Part shown: positions 38,963-60,836 of the stretch, piece after piece
Layout: each line of letters starts with the position of its first letter
Position numbering within the stretch: position 1 is the first letter of the stretch
NCBI GenBank assembly: GCA_965221775.1
Contig: CBDCSU010000006.1
Span: 672,001 to 736,000 of the forward strand
DNA: 64,000 nucleotides
Reading direction: 5' to 3'
Source: Candidatus Latescibacterota bacterium
GTDB taxonomy: Bacteria > Latescibacterota > UBA2968 > UBA8231
Made by a program: the position numbers and the translations under genes
Notes under the pieces: generated by a model
Told to the model about the DNA's origin: nothing
Seen by the model: the letters and a program-made list of their open reading frames with translations, nothing else
Databases searched by the model: none

Positions 38963-41900
38963 TCAGCGGATCAGCATGCAGCGCCGGGTCTCGGCGACCT
39001 CACCCGTGGTGAGCCGGTAGAAGTAGAGGCCGCTGGCGACCGGGGCTCCCCGGTCGTCCGTCCCGGTCCAGCGCACCTTGTGCAGGCCCGGGACGCGCGG
39101 CTCGTCGAGGAGCCTGCGGACCCGCTGCCCGAGGAGGTTGTAGATGTCGATGCGCACCCCTCCGGCGGTCCCCAGCCGGAAGGGGATGACCGTGCCGGCG
39201 TTGAAGGGATTGGGGTAGCTCCGCATCAGCTCCGTGGTGCGCGGCACAGCGGAATCCAGGGCCACCGACGTGGGCGGGGATTCCATGGAGAACAGGCCGG
39301 CGCTCGTGGCCACGTAGAGGGTCGACGGATCGAGGGGGTCCACGGCCACGTCGGTGATCCACGGGACCCCGGGATAGCCGGTGTCGAGGGCCCGCCAGGT
39401 GGCGCCTCGGTCGGGGCTGTGGTACAGCTCGCGGTCGGCCGCCAGGTAGAGGGAATTGGGTTCCCGCGGGTGGCCGCGGAGGCGAGCCGTCCTCCACGAT
39501 CCCGACCGGGGCTCCAGGATCCGGCGCCAGGTCCGCCCGGCGTCGGCGGAGACGAAGCACCCCGCGTCGGAGGCCGCGTAGAGGACACCGGGATCTACGG
39601 GATGCCGGGCCAGGTCCAGCCCCGAAGTCCCTGGCTCGAGGCGGCCCACCACCCTCCAGTCGCGGCCGTCCTTGTGGCCGACCCAGAGGGAGTCGCCGTA
39701 GAGGACGGCCAGGCTGTCCCGCGAAGCCAGCAGGGCTCCTCCCGGGCGCAGGTCTCCCATCGACGAATCCTCGCGCTCGGCGTAGGGCCCCACGCTCTCC
39801 CAGGTCCTGCCGTGGTCCGGGCTCATCCACAGGCCCGCGTCGCCGACGTAGATCACGCCCCGTAGAAGACGGTCGGCGAAGATGGAGGGACGTGGCGGAA
39901 AGGGGTTGGCACTGAAGGATGTGCCGAATGCGTTGCTCTCCACGGGCTCCCAGGTGACCCCGCCGGTTGCGCTGCGCATATAGAGCCTGCCGAGAAGGTG
40001 GGCGATCAGCACCTCGCCATCCCATGGGTCCTGGAAGACGACCTCGTAGATGCCCCGGACCCACGGGAAGTACCGCCAACTCTCCAGCCACTGCCAGGCG
40101 CCGCTCCGCTGTCGGTAGAGGCCTATGTAGCGCTCTCCTTCCCTCGACTGGAGGGAGGTCATGTGCAGACGGTCCAGATGGTCGAACCACAAGGTGCCGA
40201 CGGGAGGACCGGTCTCCTCGACCATGGCGGGGGCGGCCGTCTCTCCCCGGTCGGTGGAGACGTACACGCCTCCCGGGGTCTCCACCAGCAGGCCGGAGGG
40301 ACCGAGGGTCCTCACGCCCTCCACATCGTCGTAGGCACCGAACCTGGCGCCGGTCCCCTGCCAGGTCTCGCCGCCGTCGTGGCTGCGGTACAGCCGCCGA
40401 TCGCTGTGGGCGTAGATCAGGCCGGGCTCGTAGTCCGAGACGACCAGACCCTCGATCGCGCTGCCCACGTCCATGTCCAGCATCCGCCAGGTGGCTCCCT
40501 CGTCCGAGGTGTGGCGAAGGCCCCCATAGACAGGCAGGTAGAACCCTCCCGGCGTCCAGGGATCCGGAACGGGAGGGTCCCGGACATACCGAACGGGACT
40601 GGTTCCCACCGGGCTCGCGCCGGACTCGTCGAGCCGCCAGAGCCGGCCTCCCTCCCCTTCCGAGGAGTCGACCCAGGCATAGGTCCGGCCCGGGTCGGCC
40701 GGATGGGATCCGACACCCAGGGCGCGGCCCTCGACGGGGAACTGCCTCCACCTCCGGCCCCCGTCGTCGGAGATGAAGATGGCCCCCTCCGCTGCGGCGT
40801 AGAGTCGGTCCGGGCGATGGTCGTCGACAAAGGCGGCGTCCACGCCCTCGGGCATGGGGACCGCCGACCATGTGGCCCCCCCGTCAAGGGTCGAGTACAC
40901 CCTCTTGAATCCGGAGTGAGGGGGTCCGCCCTCGACGACGTAAGCGGTCAGGGGGTCCTCCGCGTCGCCCCGGACCGTGCTGGTTACATCGAGGTGACTG
41001 AAACGCCAGCCGAAGGTACCGATTTCCGCGAGCATGAAAGGGGCGGGCTGCCAGGTGGCACCTTCGTCGGCAGACCGCCATACGCGCCATCTCGTGCGGC
41101 CGTACCAGGCCCCGCTCGGCGCAGGGTGGATCTGCTGGAGCGGGACTTGCAGGGGGATGCCTGGTCCCTCGGGCCTCCAAGCGCCGGCCAAGGCGGGCAC
41201 GGCGCCGGGGTCCGTCCCCGCGGGCTCCACGACGCGCGGGGGGTCGCCCACGGAGCCGACGCGGACACGCGAAGCCTCGCTCTCGCCTACGTTGCCGTTG
41301 GCGTCCTCCACCACGACGCTGACCGAGTATGCCCCCGCAGGTCCCTCCCACGAGGCCTCGTACACGCCATCCCTTTCGGCCATGGATACCTCCGCCCGCA
41401 GTGTGGAGTCCGGGAGGCCGTGAATCCGGGCGGCCACGCCGCGGATCGGGCTGCCTTCGTGGATGAAGCGGCGGCCCACCCGGACGCTCAGGCCCTCCCG
41501 GGTCGGCGAGAGCCGCACGTACTGCACCCTCGGAGGTGTGATGTCAGGGAGCCGCGTGACCATAAAAGCCGCCGTGTCGGTCCACACCTGGAACCGGGTG
41601 CGCACCTGAAGCACGAAGGTCAGTTCCGTCCCGGCGGCCCCGGCCAGGGCGAGGAACTCCGGCGAGCGCGAGCTGCGGGCGCTCTCCGGTCCCTCGGCGG
41701 CAAAGCGGACGGCCCCGTCGGACACCCGCAGGGCGGCGTTGCCGGGACTGGCCAGATGGAAGCTCAGCGCCGGGAGCAGGTCCGGCGCCGTCGCCGGCAA
41801 TCGGAGATCCAGGTGGAAGAGGTCGCCGGGATCGATGCGGTCCGTCCCCTGCCAGTCCCGCACCTGCCACTGCAGTCCCTCCTGCCGGGCGCTGATCACC

Positions 41901-43666
41901 GGGATCTCCAGATCCCGCCGGCCGATCGTGTCGGCCCCGTCGACGACGGTGAGCCGCAGCCTCGCCACTTGGGAGGAGGAAAAGCCGCCGGACACGCGGG
42001 CCCGGGGCGGGGTCGGCAGGGCGCCTCCCAGGTGGTGGACGTCCGGCCGCAGCTCGGGCAACTCGAAACGAGAAGGGGTGACGGTGAGCAGGTCGTCCAG
42101 CGGCTGCAGTGTCAGGACCGCCCCGCGGGTGGTCCGCCCGCCCCGGTTCACGGGGTCGAATTGCAGCACCCCTTCCTCGCCGGCCACGAGGACGCCGTCG
42201 CCGGTCTGGTCGCGCACCGTCACGACCCCGAACTCGATCCGCGGTCCACCGATCTCGACCCGGGCCTCGAGCCCTCTCTCCGTCACCTCGATGGCGGTGA
42301 CGCTGAACGTGCTCCGGCCCTCCCCGTCGGCGGAACTCGGGTTCGTGTGGGCCGTGAACTGCGTGCGTCCGCCGGGTCCGAAGACGTCGGTGGCGTCGCC
42401 GAGGTTGCCTCCGTGGGCCTCGGCATACGCCTCGTCCCCGGCCCAGAAGTCGAGGTTGTCGCCGCCGTGGAGCGGGTCCGGCGTGCGGCCCATGGGGAAC
42501 CCGCCCTCCTGCCAGCGGCCGTCGGCGCACTCCAGATCGACAACCCAGTGAGACTGGGAGACGTCGCCGGTGCGGTTGCCGGTGACGTGCCAGATGAGCA
42601 GGCCCTCGGCCGGGATCCCCCGGTCGTACCAGGAGGAGCGGGTCCGGTACTCCAGCAGGAAGTACTCCTCCCCGCCGGCGGGGATGCGGACCAGGTCTCC
42701 CGTCCTCGCCACGTCCCGCAGGACGATCCGCTGCGACGGTTGGTCGATCTCGGTGATGGCGGACCATCCGAGGCGGAGACGGCTCCACGCGGAGAAGCTG
42801 ACGGGGCCGTCGCCGCCCCCCCAGCCGAGGGCCCCCCAGCCCATGAGGCCCCAGTTGCCGATGCCCGCCGAATCGTCGGCCGGGTCCCGCGGCTCCTCCC
42901 GGCTGAGATAGGCCACGTTGTAGAGGTCCTTCAGCCCGAAGAGGGTGTGCCCCAGCTCGTGGGCGACGGTGCCCGCCGCCTCCGGGAAGGAGCGGCTCTG
43001 GGCGACCAGGCCGAGGCGATAAGTGATCGGGTTCCCCGCGAGGTCCGGGTCGGCGGTGGCCGCGGGTTCGAGGAGCCCCAGATCGCCGATCCCGGTGGCG
43101 CCCCCGAGGAGGAAGTTGCGCGGCAGGGCGGGTGTGAGAAGGACGAGGAGATCCACCTCTCCATCGTCGTCGCCGGAGTCCGGCCGCCCGTCGGGGCCGT
43201 CGCTGTCGAACCGGGCGAGGTCCAGATCTTCGTCCACCTGGCGCAGGATCTCCCGCACGAAGTCCGCATAGCGGCCGGGTTTCGTGGGACCGGCCGCCAC
43301 GTAGTCGATGGCGTCGCCCGAGGCGAGGTAGCGCCTTGGCGCCACGACGCCGCGGAGGGTCAGGCTGCCGAAGGACATCTCCCGGTAGAAGTGGCTGACG
43401 CTGCCGGGACGATCCGGGTCGAAGAGAGACTCGGCCCAGAAGGGCACGCCGGCCTGCTGGCCGCGGAAGCCGGCGAAGACCACCAGGGCGGTGACCTGCG
43501 AAAGGGGAGTGGAGGCGGCGGCCCCGGCCGGTCTCGAGGCGGCGATCGGGGCCTCGCCCCGGGAGGGCGGGGACGCGGCCCCGGCGGTCTGGGTGGAGAC
43601 CGCCAGAAGACCTGCCAGCAGCCAGGGGGATCCCCGGCGCCCCCTGCAGCCGGGGATGTCGCCCAT
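38963..43666 (-). CDS. Secreted M6 (immune inhibitor A-like) metalloprotease with BNR/Asp-box repeats and C-terminal FlgD-Ig domain
   Basis: HFYREMSFG, AHELGH..GLKDLY, WGLMGWG, EYFLLEYR, GLLIWHV; many S.D.G.TW boxes; SYPNPFN; start taken at MGDIPG (signal peptide). Confidence 0.85.
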   Translation of the reverse strand: MGDIPGCRGRRGSPWLLAGLLAVSTQTAGAASPPSRGEAPIAASRPAGAAASTPLSQVTALVVFAGFRGQQAGVPFWAESLFDPDRPGSVSHFYREMSFGSLTLRGVVAPRRYLASGDAIDYVAAGPTKPGRYADFVREILRQVDEDLDLARFDSDGPDGRPDSGDDDGEVDLLVLLTPALPRNFLLGGATGIGDLGLLEPAATADPDLAGNPITYRLGLVAQSRSFPEAAGTVAHELGHTLFGLKDLYNVAYLSREEPRDPADDSAGIGNWGLMGWGALGWGGGDGPVSFSAWSRLRLGWSAITEIDQPSQRIVLRDVARTGDLVRIPAGGEEYFLLEYRTRSSWYDRGIPAEGLLIWHVTGNRTGDVSQSHWVVDLECADGRWQEGGFPMGRTPDPLHGGDNLDFWAGDEAYAEAHGGNLGDATDVFGPGGRTQFTAHTNPSSADGEGRSTFSVTAIEVTERGLEARVEIGGPRIEFGVVTVRDQTGDGVLVAGEEGVLQFDPVNRGGRTTRGAVLTLQPLDDLLTVTPSRFELPELRPDVHHLGGALPTPPRARVSGGFSSSQVARLRLTVVDGADTIGRRDLEIPVISARQEGLQWQVRDWQGTDRIDPGDLFHLDLRLPATAPDLLPALSFHLASPGNAALRVSDGAVRFAAEGPESARSSRSPEFLALAGAAGTELTFVLQVRTRFQVWTDTAAFMVTRLPDITPPRVQYVRLSPTREGLSVRVGRRFIHEGSPIRGVAARIHGLPDSTLRAEVSMAERDGVYEASWEGPAGAYSVSVVVEDANGNVGESEASRVRVGSVGDPPRVVEPAGTDPGAVPALAGAWRPEGPGIPLQVPLQQIHPAPSGAWYGRTRWRVWRSADEGATWQPAPFMLAEIGTFGWRFSHLDVTSTVRGDAEDPLTAYVVEGGPPHSGFKRVYSTLDGGATWSAVPMPEGVDAAFVDDHRPDRLYAAAEGAIFISDDGGRRWRQFPVEGRALGVGSHPADPGRTYAWVDSSEGEGGRLWRLDESGASPVGTSPVRYVRDPPVPDPWTPGGFYLPVYGGLRHTSDEGATWRMLDMDVGSAIEGLVVSDYEPGLIYAHSDRRLYRSHDGGETWQGTGARFGAYDDVEGVRTLGPSGLLVETPGGVYVSTDRGETAAPAMVEETGPPVGTLWFDHLDRLHMTSLQSREGERYIGLYRQRSGAWQWLESWRYFPWVRGIYEVVFQDPWDGEVLIAHLLGRLYMRSATGGVTWEPVESNAFGTSFSANPFPPRPSIFADRLLRGVIYVGDAGLWMSPDHGRTWESVGPYAEREDSSMGDLRPGGALLASRDSLAVLYGDSLWVGHKDGRDWRVVGRLEPGTSGLDLARHPVDPGVLYAASDAGCFVSADAGRTWRRILEPRSGSWRTARLRGHPREPNSLYLAADRELYHSPDRGATWRALDTGYPGVPWITDVAVDPLDPSTLYVATSAGLFSMESPPTSVALDSAVPRTTELMRSYPNPFNAGTVIPFRLGTAGGVRIDIYNLLGQRVRRLLDEPRVPGLHKVRWTGTDDRGAPVASGLYFYRLTTGEVAETRRCMLIR

Positions 43667-43835: not shown

Positions 43836-43869
43836 GAGAGGCGGCGGTCCGGTCAGCCGCCGCGCTCTC
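43836..43869 (-). terminator. GC hairpin after microprotein 1
   Basis: GAGAG-GCGGCGG..CCGCCGC-GCTCTC stem; no clear U-tract. Confidence 0.4.
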
Positions 43870-43978
43870 AGGCGGCGAGGGAGAGGGTGGCGTAGTGGGC
43901 GAAGGTGGACAGGCCGGCGAAGCACAGACTGATGGCCACGGGAATGGCGATCTCTCCGGTGATGCGAAGGATCCTCAT
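43868..43978 (-). CDS. Hydrophobic microprotein 1 (36 aa) MRILRITGEIAIPVAISLCFAGLSTFAHYATLSLAA
   Basis: GAGGAGG RBS 5 nt before ATG; sigma54 promoter ~50 nt upstream; motif shared with two paralogs. Confidence 0.8.
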   Translation of the reverse strand: MRILRITGEIAIPVAISLCFAGLSTFAHYATLSLAA

Positions 43979-44025
43979 GTCGTCCTCCTCGGGCGAAGGG
44001 TCGTGAAGCTGACGCCCTCCACCTA

Positions 44026-44041
44026 TGCAACCGACGTGCCA
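44026..44041 (-). promoter_or_regulatory. Sigma54 (-24/-12) promoter
   Basis: Minus strand TGGCACG-TCGG-TTGCA, matches the consensus. Confidence 0.88.
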
Positions 44042-44083
44042 GGTCCGTTTCTCGGGGTGGCATGCGCCGAGGCGGACTTCACT

Positions 44084-44124
44084 GGTGACCCGTTTCGCAC
44101 CAGAGGTGTTCACACGTGAACACC
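44084..44124. promoter_or_regulatory. Double-palindrome upstream activator sequence (putative bEBP sites)
   Basis: GGTG-N10-CACC followed by perfect GGTGTTCAC-AC-GTGAACACC (contains TGT-N10-ACA); lies between two divergent sigma54 promoters. Confidence 0.7.
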
Positions 44125-44244
44125 CCTCACGCGCCCGGGCCGGTCGCTGGCCGGCTCCGGCCTGCCCTTTCAGGCCGCCGGCGTCTGAGGTCGCGGGTCA
44201 GGGCCCCTTGTGCGGGCGAGCAGGATCCTGCCAGCCCCGGCGAC

Positions 44245-44259
44245 TGGCACAGGCCTTGC
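44245..44259 (+). promoter_or_regulatory. Sigma54 (-24/-12) promoter
   Basis: TGGCAC-AGGCC-TTGC. Confidence 0.85.
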
Positions 44260-44294
44260 GCACACCTGGACGTCTCGAAGAGAAGGAGGAAGGG

Positions 44295-44414
44295 ATGGTA
44301 CGGACGAAGCTGTTGCAGGACTTGGCGCTGCCAGGTGCCGTGACTCTGAGCTATGCCTACGCCGCCGTCATGGCTTTCACGAGGCTCGGACAGGTGCTCG
44401 AGAACCTGGCCTGA
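44295..44414 (+). CDS. Hydrophobic microprotein 2 (39 aa) MVRTKLLQDLALPGAVTLSYAYAAVMAFTRLGQVLENLA
   Basis: AAGGAGG RBS; sigma54 promoter ~35 nt upstream; DLALPGAVTLSYA aligns with EIAIPVAISLCFA. Confidence 0.75.
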   Translation: MVRTKLLQDLALPGAVTLSYAYAAVMAFTRLGQVLENLA

Positions 44415-44433: not shown

Positions 44434-45558
44434 CTAGGGCTCTTCCAGGATCGCCAGGGCCGCCTCGATCCGGCCCACGGCGGCCCGGTCCGCCTCCAGG
44501 GCCGCGCCGATCAGCCGGCGGGCCTCGGCCAGCTCTTCGGGGGTGTACTCCCCGCGGCCGTGAGCGGCATCGACGAGGGCGGACAACTCCACCAGGGCCT
44601 GGTGCTCGCGGCCGTAGTCGGCGGCGGCCGCGGCCAGCGGCTCCGCCGCTTCCGGGAGCAGGCCGGTCAGCTCGCGCATGTAGTCAGCCGCAAGCTCCCG
44701 CCGCCAGGTGAGGATCCTGGCGTGATGCCGCGTCGGCTGCTTGACCGCGTCCGCGGACTCGAAGGCGGCGCTCCAGGCCTCGTAGGCGGCGAAGCCCTGG
44801 GGCCGGGTCTGGGGCCGTCCGGCCTGCTCGAAGCGGGTGCCCGCGGCAAAGGCGGCGGCGTTGCGCAGGGCCATGAGGTGGGTCGCCCGCTCGTCCGCCT
44901 CGGTGGGCCCCAAGTGGGCGGTCACGTTGAACCACCCGCCGGGATCACCGGGGCCGAGGGCGTCGTAGCGCACGGCGTAGTCGACCTCGACGAAAGGGTG
45001 GCGGATGGTGCAGGTCTCCGCCTCGGGGTCGTAGCCGACGATGAGCCCCCAGCAGTAGGCGTGGTGCGCGGGGTGATCGCTCTGCTTCTGCTCCAGGCTC
45101 ATGGGCTGCCACACCAGCACCGGGATCCCCCGCTCCAGGCTGGCCACGGCGGCATCCCGGGCCTCGGCCCTCAGCGCCGGCCAGTCGACGCCGACGCTCT
45201 TGTTGTTGGCTTCGTAGACGCGGAACCGGGCCAGCTCGGGCAACAGGTCCACGGCCAGGCTCCAGTCGAGGTTGTCGTGATAGACCATGGCGCCGCCTTC
45301 CTCCATGGCGAACTGGAAGGCGTGTCCCAGGACGCCCTGGAGGCGCGCCATCGACCACTCGGGGCGGCCGGCGGCCGCCATCAGGGGATGGAGGCAGGAG
45401 GCGAGGGTGGTGCCCTTGTGGGGCTGCAGGGGCTTGACGTCGACCGTGACGTTCATGGGCTCGGGCTCCGGGTCCCCCGCACCGTGGCCGTAACCGATGG
45501 AAGCGGCGCCCAGGACGGCGAGGACAACCCCGCCGGCCCGGGCGCAACCCCCATTCAT
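44434..45558 (-). CDS. Exported hypothetical protein, possibly BtrH-N/C39-like fold
   Basis: Signal-like N-terminus; G..G.AF.F, L.RG.PVLVW, WGLIVGYD, G.AAYEAW patterns; host-like codon usage. Confidence 0.55.
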   Translation of the reverse strand: MNGGCARAGGVVLAVLGAASIGYGHGAGDPEPEPMNVTVDVKPLQPHKGTTLASCLHPLMAAAGRPEWSMARLQGVLGHAFQFAMEEGGAMVYHDNLDWSLAVDLLPELARFRVYEANNKSVGVDWPALRAEARDAAVASLERGIPVLVWQPMSLEQKQSDHPAHHAYCWGLIVGYDPEAETCTIRHPFVEVDYAVRYDALGPGDPGGWFNVTAHLGPTEADERATHLMALRNAAAFAAGTRFEQAGRPQTRPQGFAAYEAWSAAFESADAVKQPTRHHARILTWRRELAADYMRELTGLLPEAAEPLAAAAADYGREHQALVELSALVDAAHGRGEYTPEELAEARRLIGAALEADRAAVGRIEAALAILEEP

Positions 45559-60017: not shown

Positions 60018-60589
60018 CCCGGGACGAAGCCCTCGCCCTGATGCACGAGCACACGGCGTCGGAGCCCCTGCGCCGGCACATGTACGCCGTGGAGACCGCC
60101 ATGCGCGCCTGCGCCCGCCGCCTGGGCGAGGACGAGGAGGCCTGGGCCACCGTGGGCCTGCTCCACGACTTCGACTACGAGGCCCACCCCAACGAGGCGC
60201 GCTCCCCCACCGAGGGGCACCCGGCCTTCGGCGTGGCCCTGCTGCGCGAGCGCGGCTACCCCGAGCCCCTGTGCCGGGCGATCCTCGGACACGCCACCTA
60301 CAGCGGCGTGCCGCGGGACACGCCCGTGGCCCGGGCGCTGTTCGCCGTGGACGAGTTGTGCGGCTTCCTCGTGGCCTGCGCCCTCGTGCGGCCGTCGAAG
60401 AGCCTCGCCGACCTGGGCGTGCGCAGCGTCCGCAAGAAGCTCAAGGACCGCGGCTTCGCCCGCGCCGTCGACCGCGGCGAGATCCGCCAGGGGGCCGAGG
60501 AGTTCGGGGTGGATCTGGACGAGCACATCGACTTCGTCATCCAGGCGCTGCGTCCCGAGGAAGGGCGCCTGGGGCTCGGCCCCGGCTGA
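60014..60589 (+). CDS. HD-domain (HDIG) protein
   Basis: [42 protein letters not shown]. Confidence 0.85.
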
Positions 60590-60605
60590 AGCGGTGCCGA
60601 GCCCC
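60571..60605. terminator. Hairpin at the convergent HD gene / microprotein 3 junction
   Basis: GGGGCTCGGC..GCCGAGCCCC 10-bp stem. Confidence 0.4.
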
Positions 60606-60612
60606 TCGCTGA

Positions 60613-60696
60613 TCAGGCGCCGAAAAAGAACGGGCCGAGGAAGCAGACGACGATGGCGAAGGGAGCGGCGATCTCGGCGGGGCGGAAGGTCTGCAT
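60613..60696 (-). CDS. Hydrophobic microprotein 3 (27 aa) MQTFRPAEIAAPFAIVVCFLGPFFFGA
   Basis: AAGGAGG RBS 5 nt before ATG; sigma54 promoter 45 nt upstream; EIAAPFAIVVCFLG vs EIAIPVAISLCFAG of microprotein 1. Confidence 0.8.
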   Translation of the reverse strand: MQTFRPAEIAAPFAIVVCFLGPFFFGA

Positions 60697-60740: not shown

Positions 60741-60755
60741 GCAAGCGCCGTGCCA
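60741..60755 (-). promoter_or_regulatory. Sigma54 (-24/-12) promoter
   Basis: Minus strand TGGCACG-GCGC-TTGC. Confidence 0.88.
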
Positions 60756-60796: not shown

Positions 60797-60836
60797 GGTG
60801 GCCGTCTCCGCACACGGGTGTCCGTTGGCGGACGCC
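60797..60836. promoter_or_regulatory. Double-palindrome upstream activator sequence matching 44084-44124
   Basis: GGTG-N10-CAC followed by GGTGTCCG-TTGG-CGGACGCC. Confidence 0.68.

Follow-up and report, generated by a model that had tools for sequence, protein, structure and literature searches.

In the genome of an uncultured Candidatus Latescibacterota bacterium, the interval between a gene for an M6 peptidase and a convergent gene of 374 aa contains two small, outward-facing open reading frames (ORFs), ORF-A and ORF-B, and this locus poses the question of whether they are genes and what their products might do. The interval lies in a window of 64,000 nucleotides, by which we mean the whole stretch of DNA analysed here; it corresponds to C6:672001-736000 (contig CBDCSU010000006.1 of assembly GCA_965221775.1) of the window's own genome, G000, which measures 5.36 Mb at roughly 70% G+C and is 96.8% complete. 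A previous description made from the letters of the window alone, called here the sequence-only reading, had reported the two ORFs at 36 and 39 aa, alluded to a third peptide, and attributed them to an unannotated peptide family, single-helix and either membrane-bound or exported, that RpoN would control. The positions of both ORFs proved correct, and the third peptide could be identified as a 27-aa ORF in the same window (ORF-D), with a promoter box of its own; a fourth family member lies elsewhere in G000, behind an exact sigma-54 box at C6:998767.

Judged from their sequences, these are real protein-coding genes, predicted to be translated into single-helix membrane peptides, and the peptides most likely belong to a two-component efflux regulon and would be inserted in the inner membrane. 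What they do there is the weakest step of the argument, a guess constrained by context: to the reading that this four-paralogue family of 27-39-residue, single-helix inner-membrane peptides supplies the induced pump, or the kinase, with accessory or modulatory subunits, taken as a whole, we assign a probability of about 45%.

A small-peptide family behind sigma-54 promoters

A profile built from the four G000 peptides was searched in 41 related genomes and gave 17 strong matches (E <= 1.9e-7), confined to G000, G002, G004, G006 and G007; the next best match had an E value of 0.037. The 17 loci sort into four orthologous types, A to D, and every one of them has a sigma-54 box (TGGCA[CT]-N5-TTGC) upstream, a GGAGG-type ribosome-binding site and an ATG, such that the conservation of frame, start and ribosome site in relatives, and their co-occurrence with the box, extend throughout the family. 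At ORF-A and ORF-B, an AGGAGG-type site and a -24/-12 box 35-50 nt upstream had been described; the ribosome sites are indeed of the GGAGG type, and both boxes are exact and lie within that range (Table 1). Ten loci behind the weak matches outside the five genomes (E 0.037-0.93) were inspected and dismissed as noise, lacking a start codon or carrying internal stops; one of them had an 8/10 sigma-54-like box about 127 nt upstream, but also a stop inside the match.

Alignment confirms the peptide motif that had been noticed after a basic N-terminus: proline 13 is invariant in all 28 sequences and alanine 11 in 27 of the 28, with a variable N-terminus preceding a fixed core. All four G000 peptides possess the basic N-terminus and a 19-residue hydrophobic window, with a grand average of hydropathy (GRAVY) of 0.72-1.24 and net charges of +1, +1, +4 and 0. 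An AlphaFold2 model of type A consists of one helix, residues 2-35, at a predicted local distance difference test score (pLDDT) of 89.5; the membrane-helix call combines hydropathy with this model, no dedicated transmembrane (TM) predictor being involved. At 27-39 residues, the family falls below the 50-residue limit of small single-pass membrane regulators.

The family is undescribed and restricted to a few close relatives, as the sequence-only reading had anticipated in respect of its novelty. Neither Pfam nor NCBIfam matches the peptides at E <= 10, PDB sequences give no match (best E 0.18), nothing in the Atlas scores at or above 0.9 (best 0.82), and the single PADLOC match, made by one of 15 members, is at chance level (E 0.029); nor did a search of the open-access full-text literature turn up a paper on such a peptide family. 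Among 1.84 billion representative proteins, a profile search retrieved 13 matches, all recognisably of types A to D, and when 185,579 species genomes were scanned with a pattern from the alignment of types A and C, the same genus alone came up. The peptide-bearing genomes form one subclade, judging by RpoN DNA-binding domains that are 91-97% identical to that of G000, compared to 80-83% in five peptide-free genomes of the same genus.

The window contains three exact boxes (TGGCAC-N5-TTGC), where dinucleotide shuffling leaves 0.08 on average (100 shuffles, none of which reaches three). Genes this small often escape annotation, and four of the 15 exact boxes in the whole genome precede members of this unnamed family. 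An exact box alone is no proof, since roughly seven are expected by chance in 5.36 Mb when the window shuffles are scaled up; the sites exceed chance because of their position (box, 35-48 nt, then ribosome site and ATG) and because this is conserved at 17 of 17 loci in five genomes. Control by RpoN, which needs an enhancer-binding ATPase, had been proposed and is in keeping with the gene complement: G000 encodes one rpoN (one Sigma54_DBD match) and 15 full Sigma54_activat matches, with two weak ones in addition, and among them is the candidate activator considered below. Other exact boxes in G000 precede two pspA genes, groES (Cpn10), hsp20 and a gene for a sigma factor of the extracytoplasmic function (ECF) type, all confirmed with Pfam; chaperone and envelope-stress genes in this lineage seem to be sigma-54-driven.

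In their substitutions, types B and D show purifying selection. For type B, the ratio of nonsynonymous to synonymous rates (dN/dS) is 0.15-0.50 in six of six pairs, and box, spacing and reading frame persist in G007, G006 and G002 despite flanking sequence that cannot be aligned from one genome to another. Three 28-aa type-D orthologues (three pairs) differ by no nonsynonymous and 3-5 synonymous changes, the remaining seven of ten pairs having been left out of dN/dS owing to length differences (27-aa and 29-aa forms). Variable sites at codon positions 1, 2 and 3 number 11, 12 and 21 in type B, 0, 0 and 6 in the three type-D orthologues, and 11, 11 and 14 in types A and C together. In types A and C the changes are too few to tell (the proportion of synonymous differences, pS, is 0.03-0.19, and pairs involving the 32-aa form of type A were compared over the shared length only), and for these two types it is the invariant core that speaks for selection, and not the rates. 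All indels within the family ORFs are in frame. The 32-aa form is the product of a 12-nt deletion in type A of G002, where a further deletion removes the hairpin after the stop, while type C in G007 and G002 has an insertion of ~48 nt between box and ribosome site, such that the 5' leader measures 93-94 nt, compared to 45-46 nt in the other three genomes.

A very different view is that the ORFs are untranslated, the loci being sigma-54-driven small RNAs or promoter fossils in which the frames are incidental. The low synonymous divergence of types A and C, with dN/dS near 1 in several pairs, could reflect constraint at the nucleotide level, and no RNA contig covers the peptide ORFs among the assembled contigs of public runs, on which the expression check was made. 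We give this view hardly any credence, because all 17 loci have an ATG preceded, at the right spacing, by a ribosome site, only in-frame indels occur, types B and D combine third-position excess with dN/dS below 0.5, and the paralogues retain a common protein motif though their DNA has diverged; a scan of the region with Rfam matched no family beyond a single chance-level miRNA (E 0.39).

A shared palindrome and the predicted regulon around it

All four types of cassette prove, on alignment, to be preceded by a palindrome, TGTYCG-N4-CGRACA, which often occurs twice at a spacing of about 20 bp. Scored as TGT.CG-N4-CG.ACA within 170 nt upstream, it is present with at most one mismatch (among 10 specified bases) in 13 of the 17 cassettes and with at most two in 16, against 0.29% and 6.6% respectively of random 170-nt segments; type C in G007 is without a good match (best four mismatches). 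A genome contains 1-4 exact sites, and none of the reversed pattern that served as a control. Each gene forms a self-contained cassette, which runs in order from putative palindromic enhancer through sigma-54 -24/-12 promoter, GGAGG site and ORF to, usually, a GC-rich hairpin.

ORF-A and ORF-B had been described as a divergent pair, and so they are in G000, but the pairing is retained in only two of the three genomes that have both types. Between their promoters lies a perfect palindrome (Table 1), which we read as a shared enhancer, or upstream activating sequence (UAS), of the pair, its binding by an activator being predicted. In G000 both half-sites differ symmetrically from those of G007 and G002 (CG to CA, and the mirror image), such that the palindrome is still perfect. 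Three other strain assemblies preserve its sequence and both promoter cores unchanged, and ORF-B likewise. Beside it, a second inverted repeat may be another activator site.

Across G000, six of 153 sigma-54-like sites have a palindrome with at most one mismatch within 160 nt upstream, against 0.14% of random segments. Five of these belong to cassettes C and D, a gene for a 64-aa helix-turn-helix (HTH) protein, an hlyD-ABC operon and an array of permease genes; the sixth palindrome, at 3 nt from its box, is probably fortuitous. That one palindrome is common to the peptide cassettes, an activator locus and pump genes is a new observation, beyond what the sequence-only reading contained.

The operon encodes an HlyD adaptor and an ABC ATPase, with palindrome and sigma-54 promoter in front. 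Divergent from hlyD, and starting 14 nt after the palindrome, is the gene for an NtrC-type response regulator with the domains Response_reg, Sigma54_activat and HTH_8; the next gene encodes a histidine kinase (PAS/HisKA/HATPase) with two TM helices, residues 20-38 and 44-62, separated by a loop of about 5 residues. The permease genes form a tandem array of about 12 double-FtsX, MacB-like members (C6:2131823-2160118, reverse strand; about 24 FtsX-domain matches), of which the first has FtsX and MacB_PCD domains, behind one sigma-54-like promoter (TGGCGC-N5-TTGC) with palindrome. The array converges on the two-component genes, and the only adjacent ATPase and adaptor sit on the other side. At the HTH gene, which encodes a Fis-type protein with no other domain (C5:978487-978678, reverse strand), a perfect TGTCCG-N4-CGGACA (0 mismatches) accompanies an exact box, and the protein may therefore feed back on the same regulon; it can be weakly aligned with the HTH of the activator itself (E 0.004). 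G000 has about 11 small Fis-type HTH proteins of this stand-alone kind, open frames of 60-130 aa with a very conserved core; copies also stand immediately before pspA (C5:50379-50501) and close to the kinase (C6:2129449-2129607).

At the activator, the half-sites of the palindrome are conserved and the spacer varies among G000, G002, G006 and G007, where the gene arrangement is conserved likewise. The palindrome also stands beside activator orthologues of 67-74% identity in G019, G011 and G026, and in more distant genomes the same double palindrome and a sigma-54 box precede MacB-like permeases, though no peptides of the family were found there. The activator/hlyD locus of G006 has a type-D cassette some 5 kb away, and cassette, pspA, activator and hlyD together fit within about 9 kb. 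G002 has, about 3 kb downstream of its type-B cassette, an activator paralogue of 45% identity. Precisely the peptide-bearing relatives, G002, G004, G006 and G007, possess activator orthologues of 92-98% identity, and no close orthologue was found in G001, G003, G005, G008 or G009, which also lack the peptides. That this activator drives the cassettes is, from these motifs, a well-supported prediction, and it is the palindrome shared with activator and pump genes that places the peptides, most probably, in the efflux regulon. The result is a concrete predicted regulon, comprising an NtrC-type two-component system, a palindromic enhancer, a MacB-type pump with an unusual permease array and a stand-alone HTH protein.

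Possible roles of the peptides

In the mechanism that we favour, the kinase would sense a membrane or envelope signal and phosphorylate the NtrC-type activator, which would bind the enhancers such that the sigma-54 promoters of the pump genes, the small HTH gene and the four cassettes open together. The peptides would insert into the inner membrane with the N-terminus inside and work as small accessory, modulatory or feedback subunits of pump or kinase, in the manner of AcrZ with AcrB or MgrB with PhoQ. AcrZ (for the AcrB pump) and MgrB (for the PhoQ kinase) are one-helix peptides of fewer than 50 residues, encoded in the same regulon as their target, and the present peptides resemble them in size, in the single membrane helix and in co-regulation, predicted from motifs, with a pump and two-component system. 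They differ in having no sequence relation, a sigma-54 promoter and enhancer instead of sigma-70 activators, and four paralogues instead of one, and partner binding is putative here. A complex prediction of the first 125 residues of the kinase, in two copies, with the type-C/A peptide alignment gave no answer (score 0.00, run without controls) and speaks neither for nor against binding. Should the peptides have pump or kinase as partners, or be exported, they would be a sigma-54-controlled case among the few small membrane proteins whose function is understood.

Several results weigh against this account. The co-distribution of peptides and activator comes from a single subclade and represents one or two evolutionary events, not five; it is weak independent evidence for that reason. 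G019 and G026 have the same activator, enhancer and permease regulon, in which no family peptides were found, and the pump therefore does not need the peptides. The helical moment of column information along the peptides is reached by 2891 of 5000 shuffles, which lends no support to a single packing face. In types A and C, dN/dS is 0.32-1.56 on very few substitutions, and the three other strain assemblies have three differences in the N-terminal part of ORF-A, read as nonsynonymous. The A/B palindrome departs from the motif by two symmetric mismatches in G000, compared to none in G007 and G002. Finally, the one RNA run that overlaps the region (0.06 share) contributes a single 240-nt contig, at 44435-44600, covering the 3' end of the neighbouring 374-aa gene only.

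The same regulon invites the view that the peptides are cargo: leaderless hydrophobic products, bacteriocin-like, signalling or host-directed, that enter the inner membrane or are released at it and are then extracted and expelled by the co-induced HlyD/ABC/MacB-type pump, whose many permease paralogues would give substrate breadth. MacB-family tripartite exporters, such as DarBCD for darobactin and MacAB with enterotoxin STII, do handle small peptides, and the co-regulated operon encodes an adaptor and an ATPase of the same type; their best named NCBIfam models are the darobactin-export DarC (152 bits against a cut-off of 450) and DarD (263 against 375), both matches being sub-threshold. The predicted regulon unites the peptides with adaptor, ATPase and about 12 MacB/FtsX permeases, a varying N-terminus with fixed core fits such a role, and paralogous peptides with a regulated promoter each resemble multi-peptide bacteriocin regulons. 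On the other hand, no leader or double-glycine motif was seen in the peptide alignments, and no immunity or maturation gene was noticed nearby. Three of the four peptides have a net charge of 0 to +1, unlike the cationic mature peptides of leaderless or class II bacteriocins, which are further marked by a double-glycine leader or a dedicated immunity gene. The peptides here, unlike darobactin-type systems, come without precursor or maturation genes, and their export is putative. The cassettes are scattered away from the pump except in G006, and the peptide-free regulons of G019 and G026 count here also. We therefore regard export as a doubtful explanation, if one that deserves serious attention.

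A bolder variant joins both ideas: a young family of one subclade, spread as complete plug-in cassettes, whose peptides would serve a modular machine of MacB type, built from one adaptor, one ATPase and about a dozen interchangeable permeases, as ligands embedded in the membrane or as cargo, and would be read by the kinase. We think this unlikely; were it true, it would amount to a sigma-54-gated circuit of peptide secretion and sensing, with no described counterpart, in an uncultured and largely sponge-associated bacterium. Functionally, AcrZ and MgrB apart, the nearest known kind is the Bce-type module for sensing antimicrobial peptides in Firmicutes, in which an intramembrane-sensing kinase almost without an outside loop is coupled to an ABC transporter of FtsX/MacB fold that it induces. 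Here too, a short-loop intramembrane-sensing kinase and an FtsX-fold permease fall in one predicted regulon, but the regulator is NtrC-type and sigma-54-dependent, not OmpR-type, the ATPase is separate, there is an HlyD adaptor with about 12 permeases, and the host is diderm; we know of no small peptides among the parts of Bce modules.

In architecture, the closest system is the PEP-CTERM regulon under PrsR and PrsK, in which many single genes, dispersed as separate operons, each follow an activator-binding motif and a sigma-54 -24/-12 motif, and which is governed by an NtrC-like regulator and a membrane kinase (Haft et al. 2006, PMC1569441). The similarity extends to the kind of product, small envelope-directed proteins, and the best model for our activator is PrsR itself (TIGR02915), although its 402.8 bits fall below the cut-off of 502.6. 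The peptides, with a basic N-terminal stretch and one helix, are unlike PEP-CTERM proteins in having no C-terminal signal of Pro-Glu-Pro, helix and Arg cluster; neither PEP nor a C-terminal Arg cluster was seen in their alignments. Unlike PEP-CTERM systems, exosortase (EpsH/XrtA, PF09721) was not found in G000, and the co-regulated machinery is a MacB-type pump and not a set of exopolysaccharide genes.

Small membrane proteins from sigma-54 or stress regulons are also exemplified by PspB, PspC, PspG and LiaI, and the peptides might be envelope-stress effectors of this kind, made under membrane stress and either stabilising the bilayer or recruiting PspA, with nothing but shared induction linking them to the pump. 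In support, the type-D cassette of G006 lies directly upstream of pspA with its own sigma-54 promoter, and sigma-54 seems to serve stress genes in this organism through the exact boxes at pspA, groES, hsp20 and the ECF sigma factor. The pspA adjacency is, however, found in one of five genomes, and the peptides match no Pfam or NCBIfam family of PspB, PspC, PspG or LiaI type. The enhancers differ also: the two pspA promoters have another upstream repeat in common (GATGGCGG-like), and not the TGTYCG palindrome. Such a role is improbable in our view.

The size, the single hydrophobic helix, the stand-alone genes and the very tight promoters would also suit membrane-depolarising toxic peptides, type I toxin-like or YohP-like, held under sigma-54 control for growth arrest or persistence. 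This we consider decidedly improbable, the Rfam scan of the region having given no antisense RNA or antitoxin feature, and four paralogues with a conserved core and an enhancer shared with the pump pointing to a cooperative role.

In evolutionary terms, the cassettes may record the birth of a micro-gene that arose and duplicated, with its own enhancer and promoter, inside an older regulon; this is suggested by peptide-free relatives that possess the regulon.

Feature coordinates and neighbouring genes

The features of the locus are collected in Table 1, together with the exact boxes that precede stress genes elsewhere in the genome.

Table 1. Positions of the peptide genes, their signals and their neighbours (window numbering; positions prefixed C4, C5 or C6 lie outside the window)
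Feature	Position	Strand	Remarks
ORF-A (type A)	43868..43978; ATG 43978 to 43871, stop 43870-43868	-	36 aa + stop; orthologues in G007, G002
ORF-B (type B)	44295..44414; coding 44295-44411, stop 44412-44414	+	39 aa + stop; four orthologues
ORF-D (type D), third family member	60613..60696; coding 60696-60616	-	27 aa + stop
Ribosome-binding site of ORF-A, GAGGAGGA	43983..43990	-	5 nt before ATG; identical in all 3 type-A loci
Ribosome-binding site of ORF-B, AAGGAGG	44283..44289	+	sequence
Sigma-54 -24/-12 box of ORF-A, exact TGGCAC-N5-TTGC	44027..44041	-	48 nt from box 3' end to ATG; kept in G007, G002
Sigma-54 -24/-12 box of ORF-B, exact	44245..44259	+	35 nt before ATG; kept in G007, G006, G002
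Sigma-54 box of ORF-D, exact	60741..60755	-	sequence
Perfect 20-bp palindrome between A/B promoters	44105..44124	.	65 nt from box A, 122 nt from box B; unique in genome
Second inverted repeat, CTGGTG-N10-CACCAG, beside palindrome	44082..44103	.	partly conserved; block conserved in three type-A loci
Palindrome of ORF-D	60819..60834	.	1 mismatch; second site 20 nt closer to promoter
GC-rich hairpin directly after ORF-A stop	43836..43869	-	possible terminator or stabiliser, no U tract
Hairpin after ORF-D	60571..60605	-	kept in 4/5 type-D loci
M6-type metallopeptidase gene	38966-43666	-	1567 aa, secreted; about 200 nt downstream of ORF-A, same strand
374-aa ORF, convergent with ORF-B	44434-45558	-	20 nt between the two stops
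Exact boxes before pspA (two), groES, hsp20 and ECF sigma genes	C4:263679, C5:50087, C4:914098, C6:602758, C5:586730	+, -, +, +, +	outside window

Scans of the region for sigma-70 promoters and U-tract terminators returned no sites. The hairpin behind ORF-A folds at -40.2 kcal/mol over an 81-nt stretch (z -2.39) and is kept in G007 and deleted in G002. ORF-B has no significant hairpin 3' of the gene, and its transcript may therefore run antisense into the convergent 374-aa gene, a neighbour with no Pfam match. In G002, an overlapping 56-aa ORF, probably spurious, directly follows type B (L029:951-1118, forward strand).

The M6 peptidase carries Peptidase_M6, BNR, Sortilin and C-terminal FlgD_ig domains according to Pfam, and its synteny with ORF-A is preserved in G007 and G002. 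The transcript of ORF-A might read through into this co-directional gene despite the intervening hairpin; between the hairpin and the start of the peptidase gene there is a conserved block of about 45 nt. Among public sequencing runs that contain the stretch, 11 of 20 are labelled sponge metagenome (8 studies).

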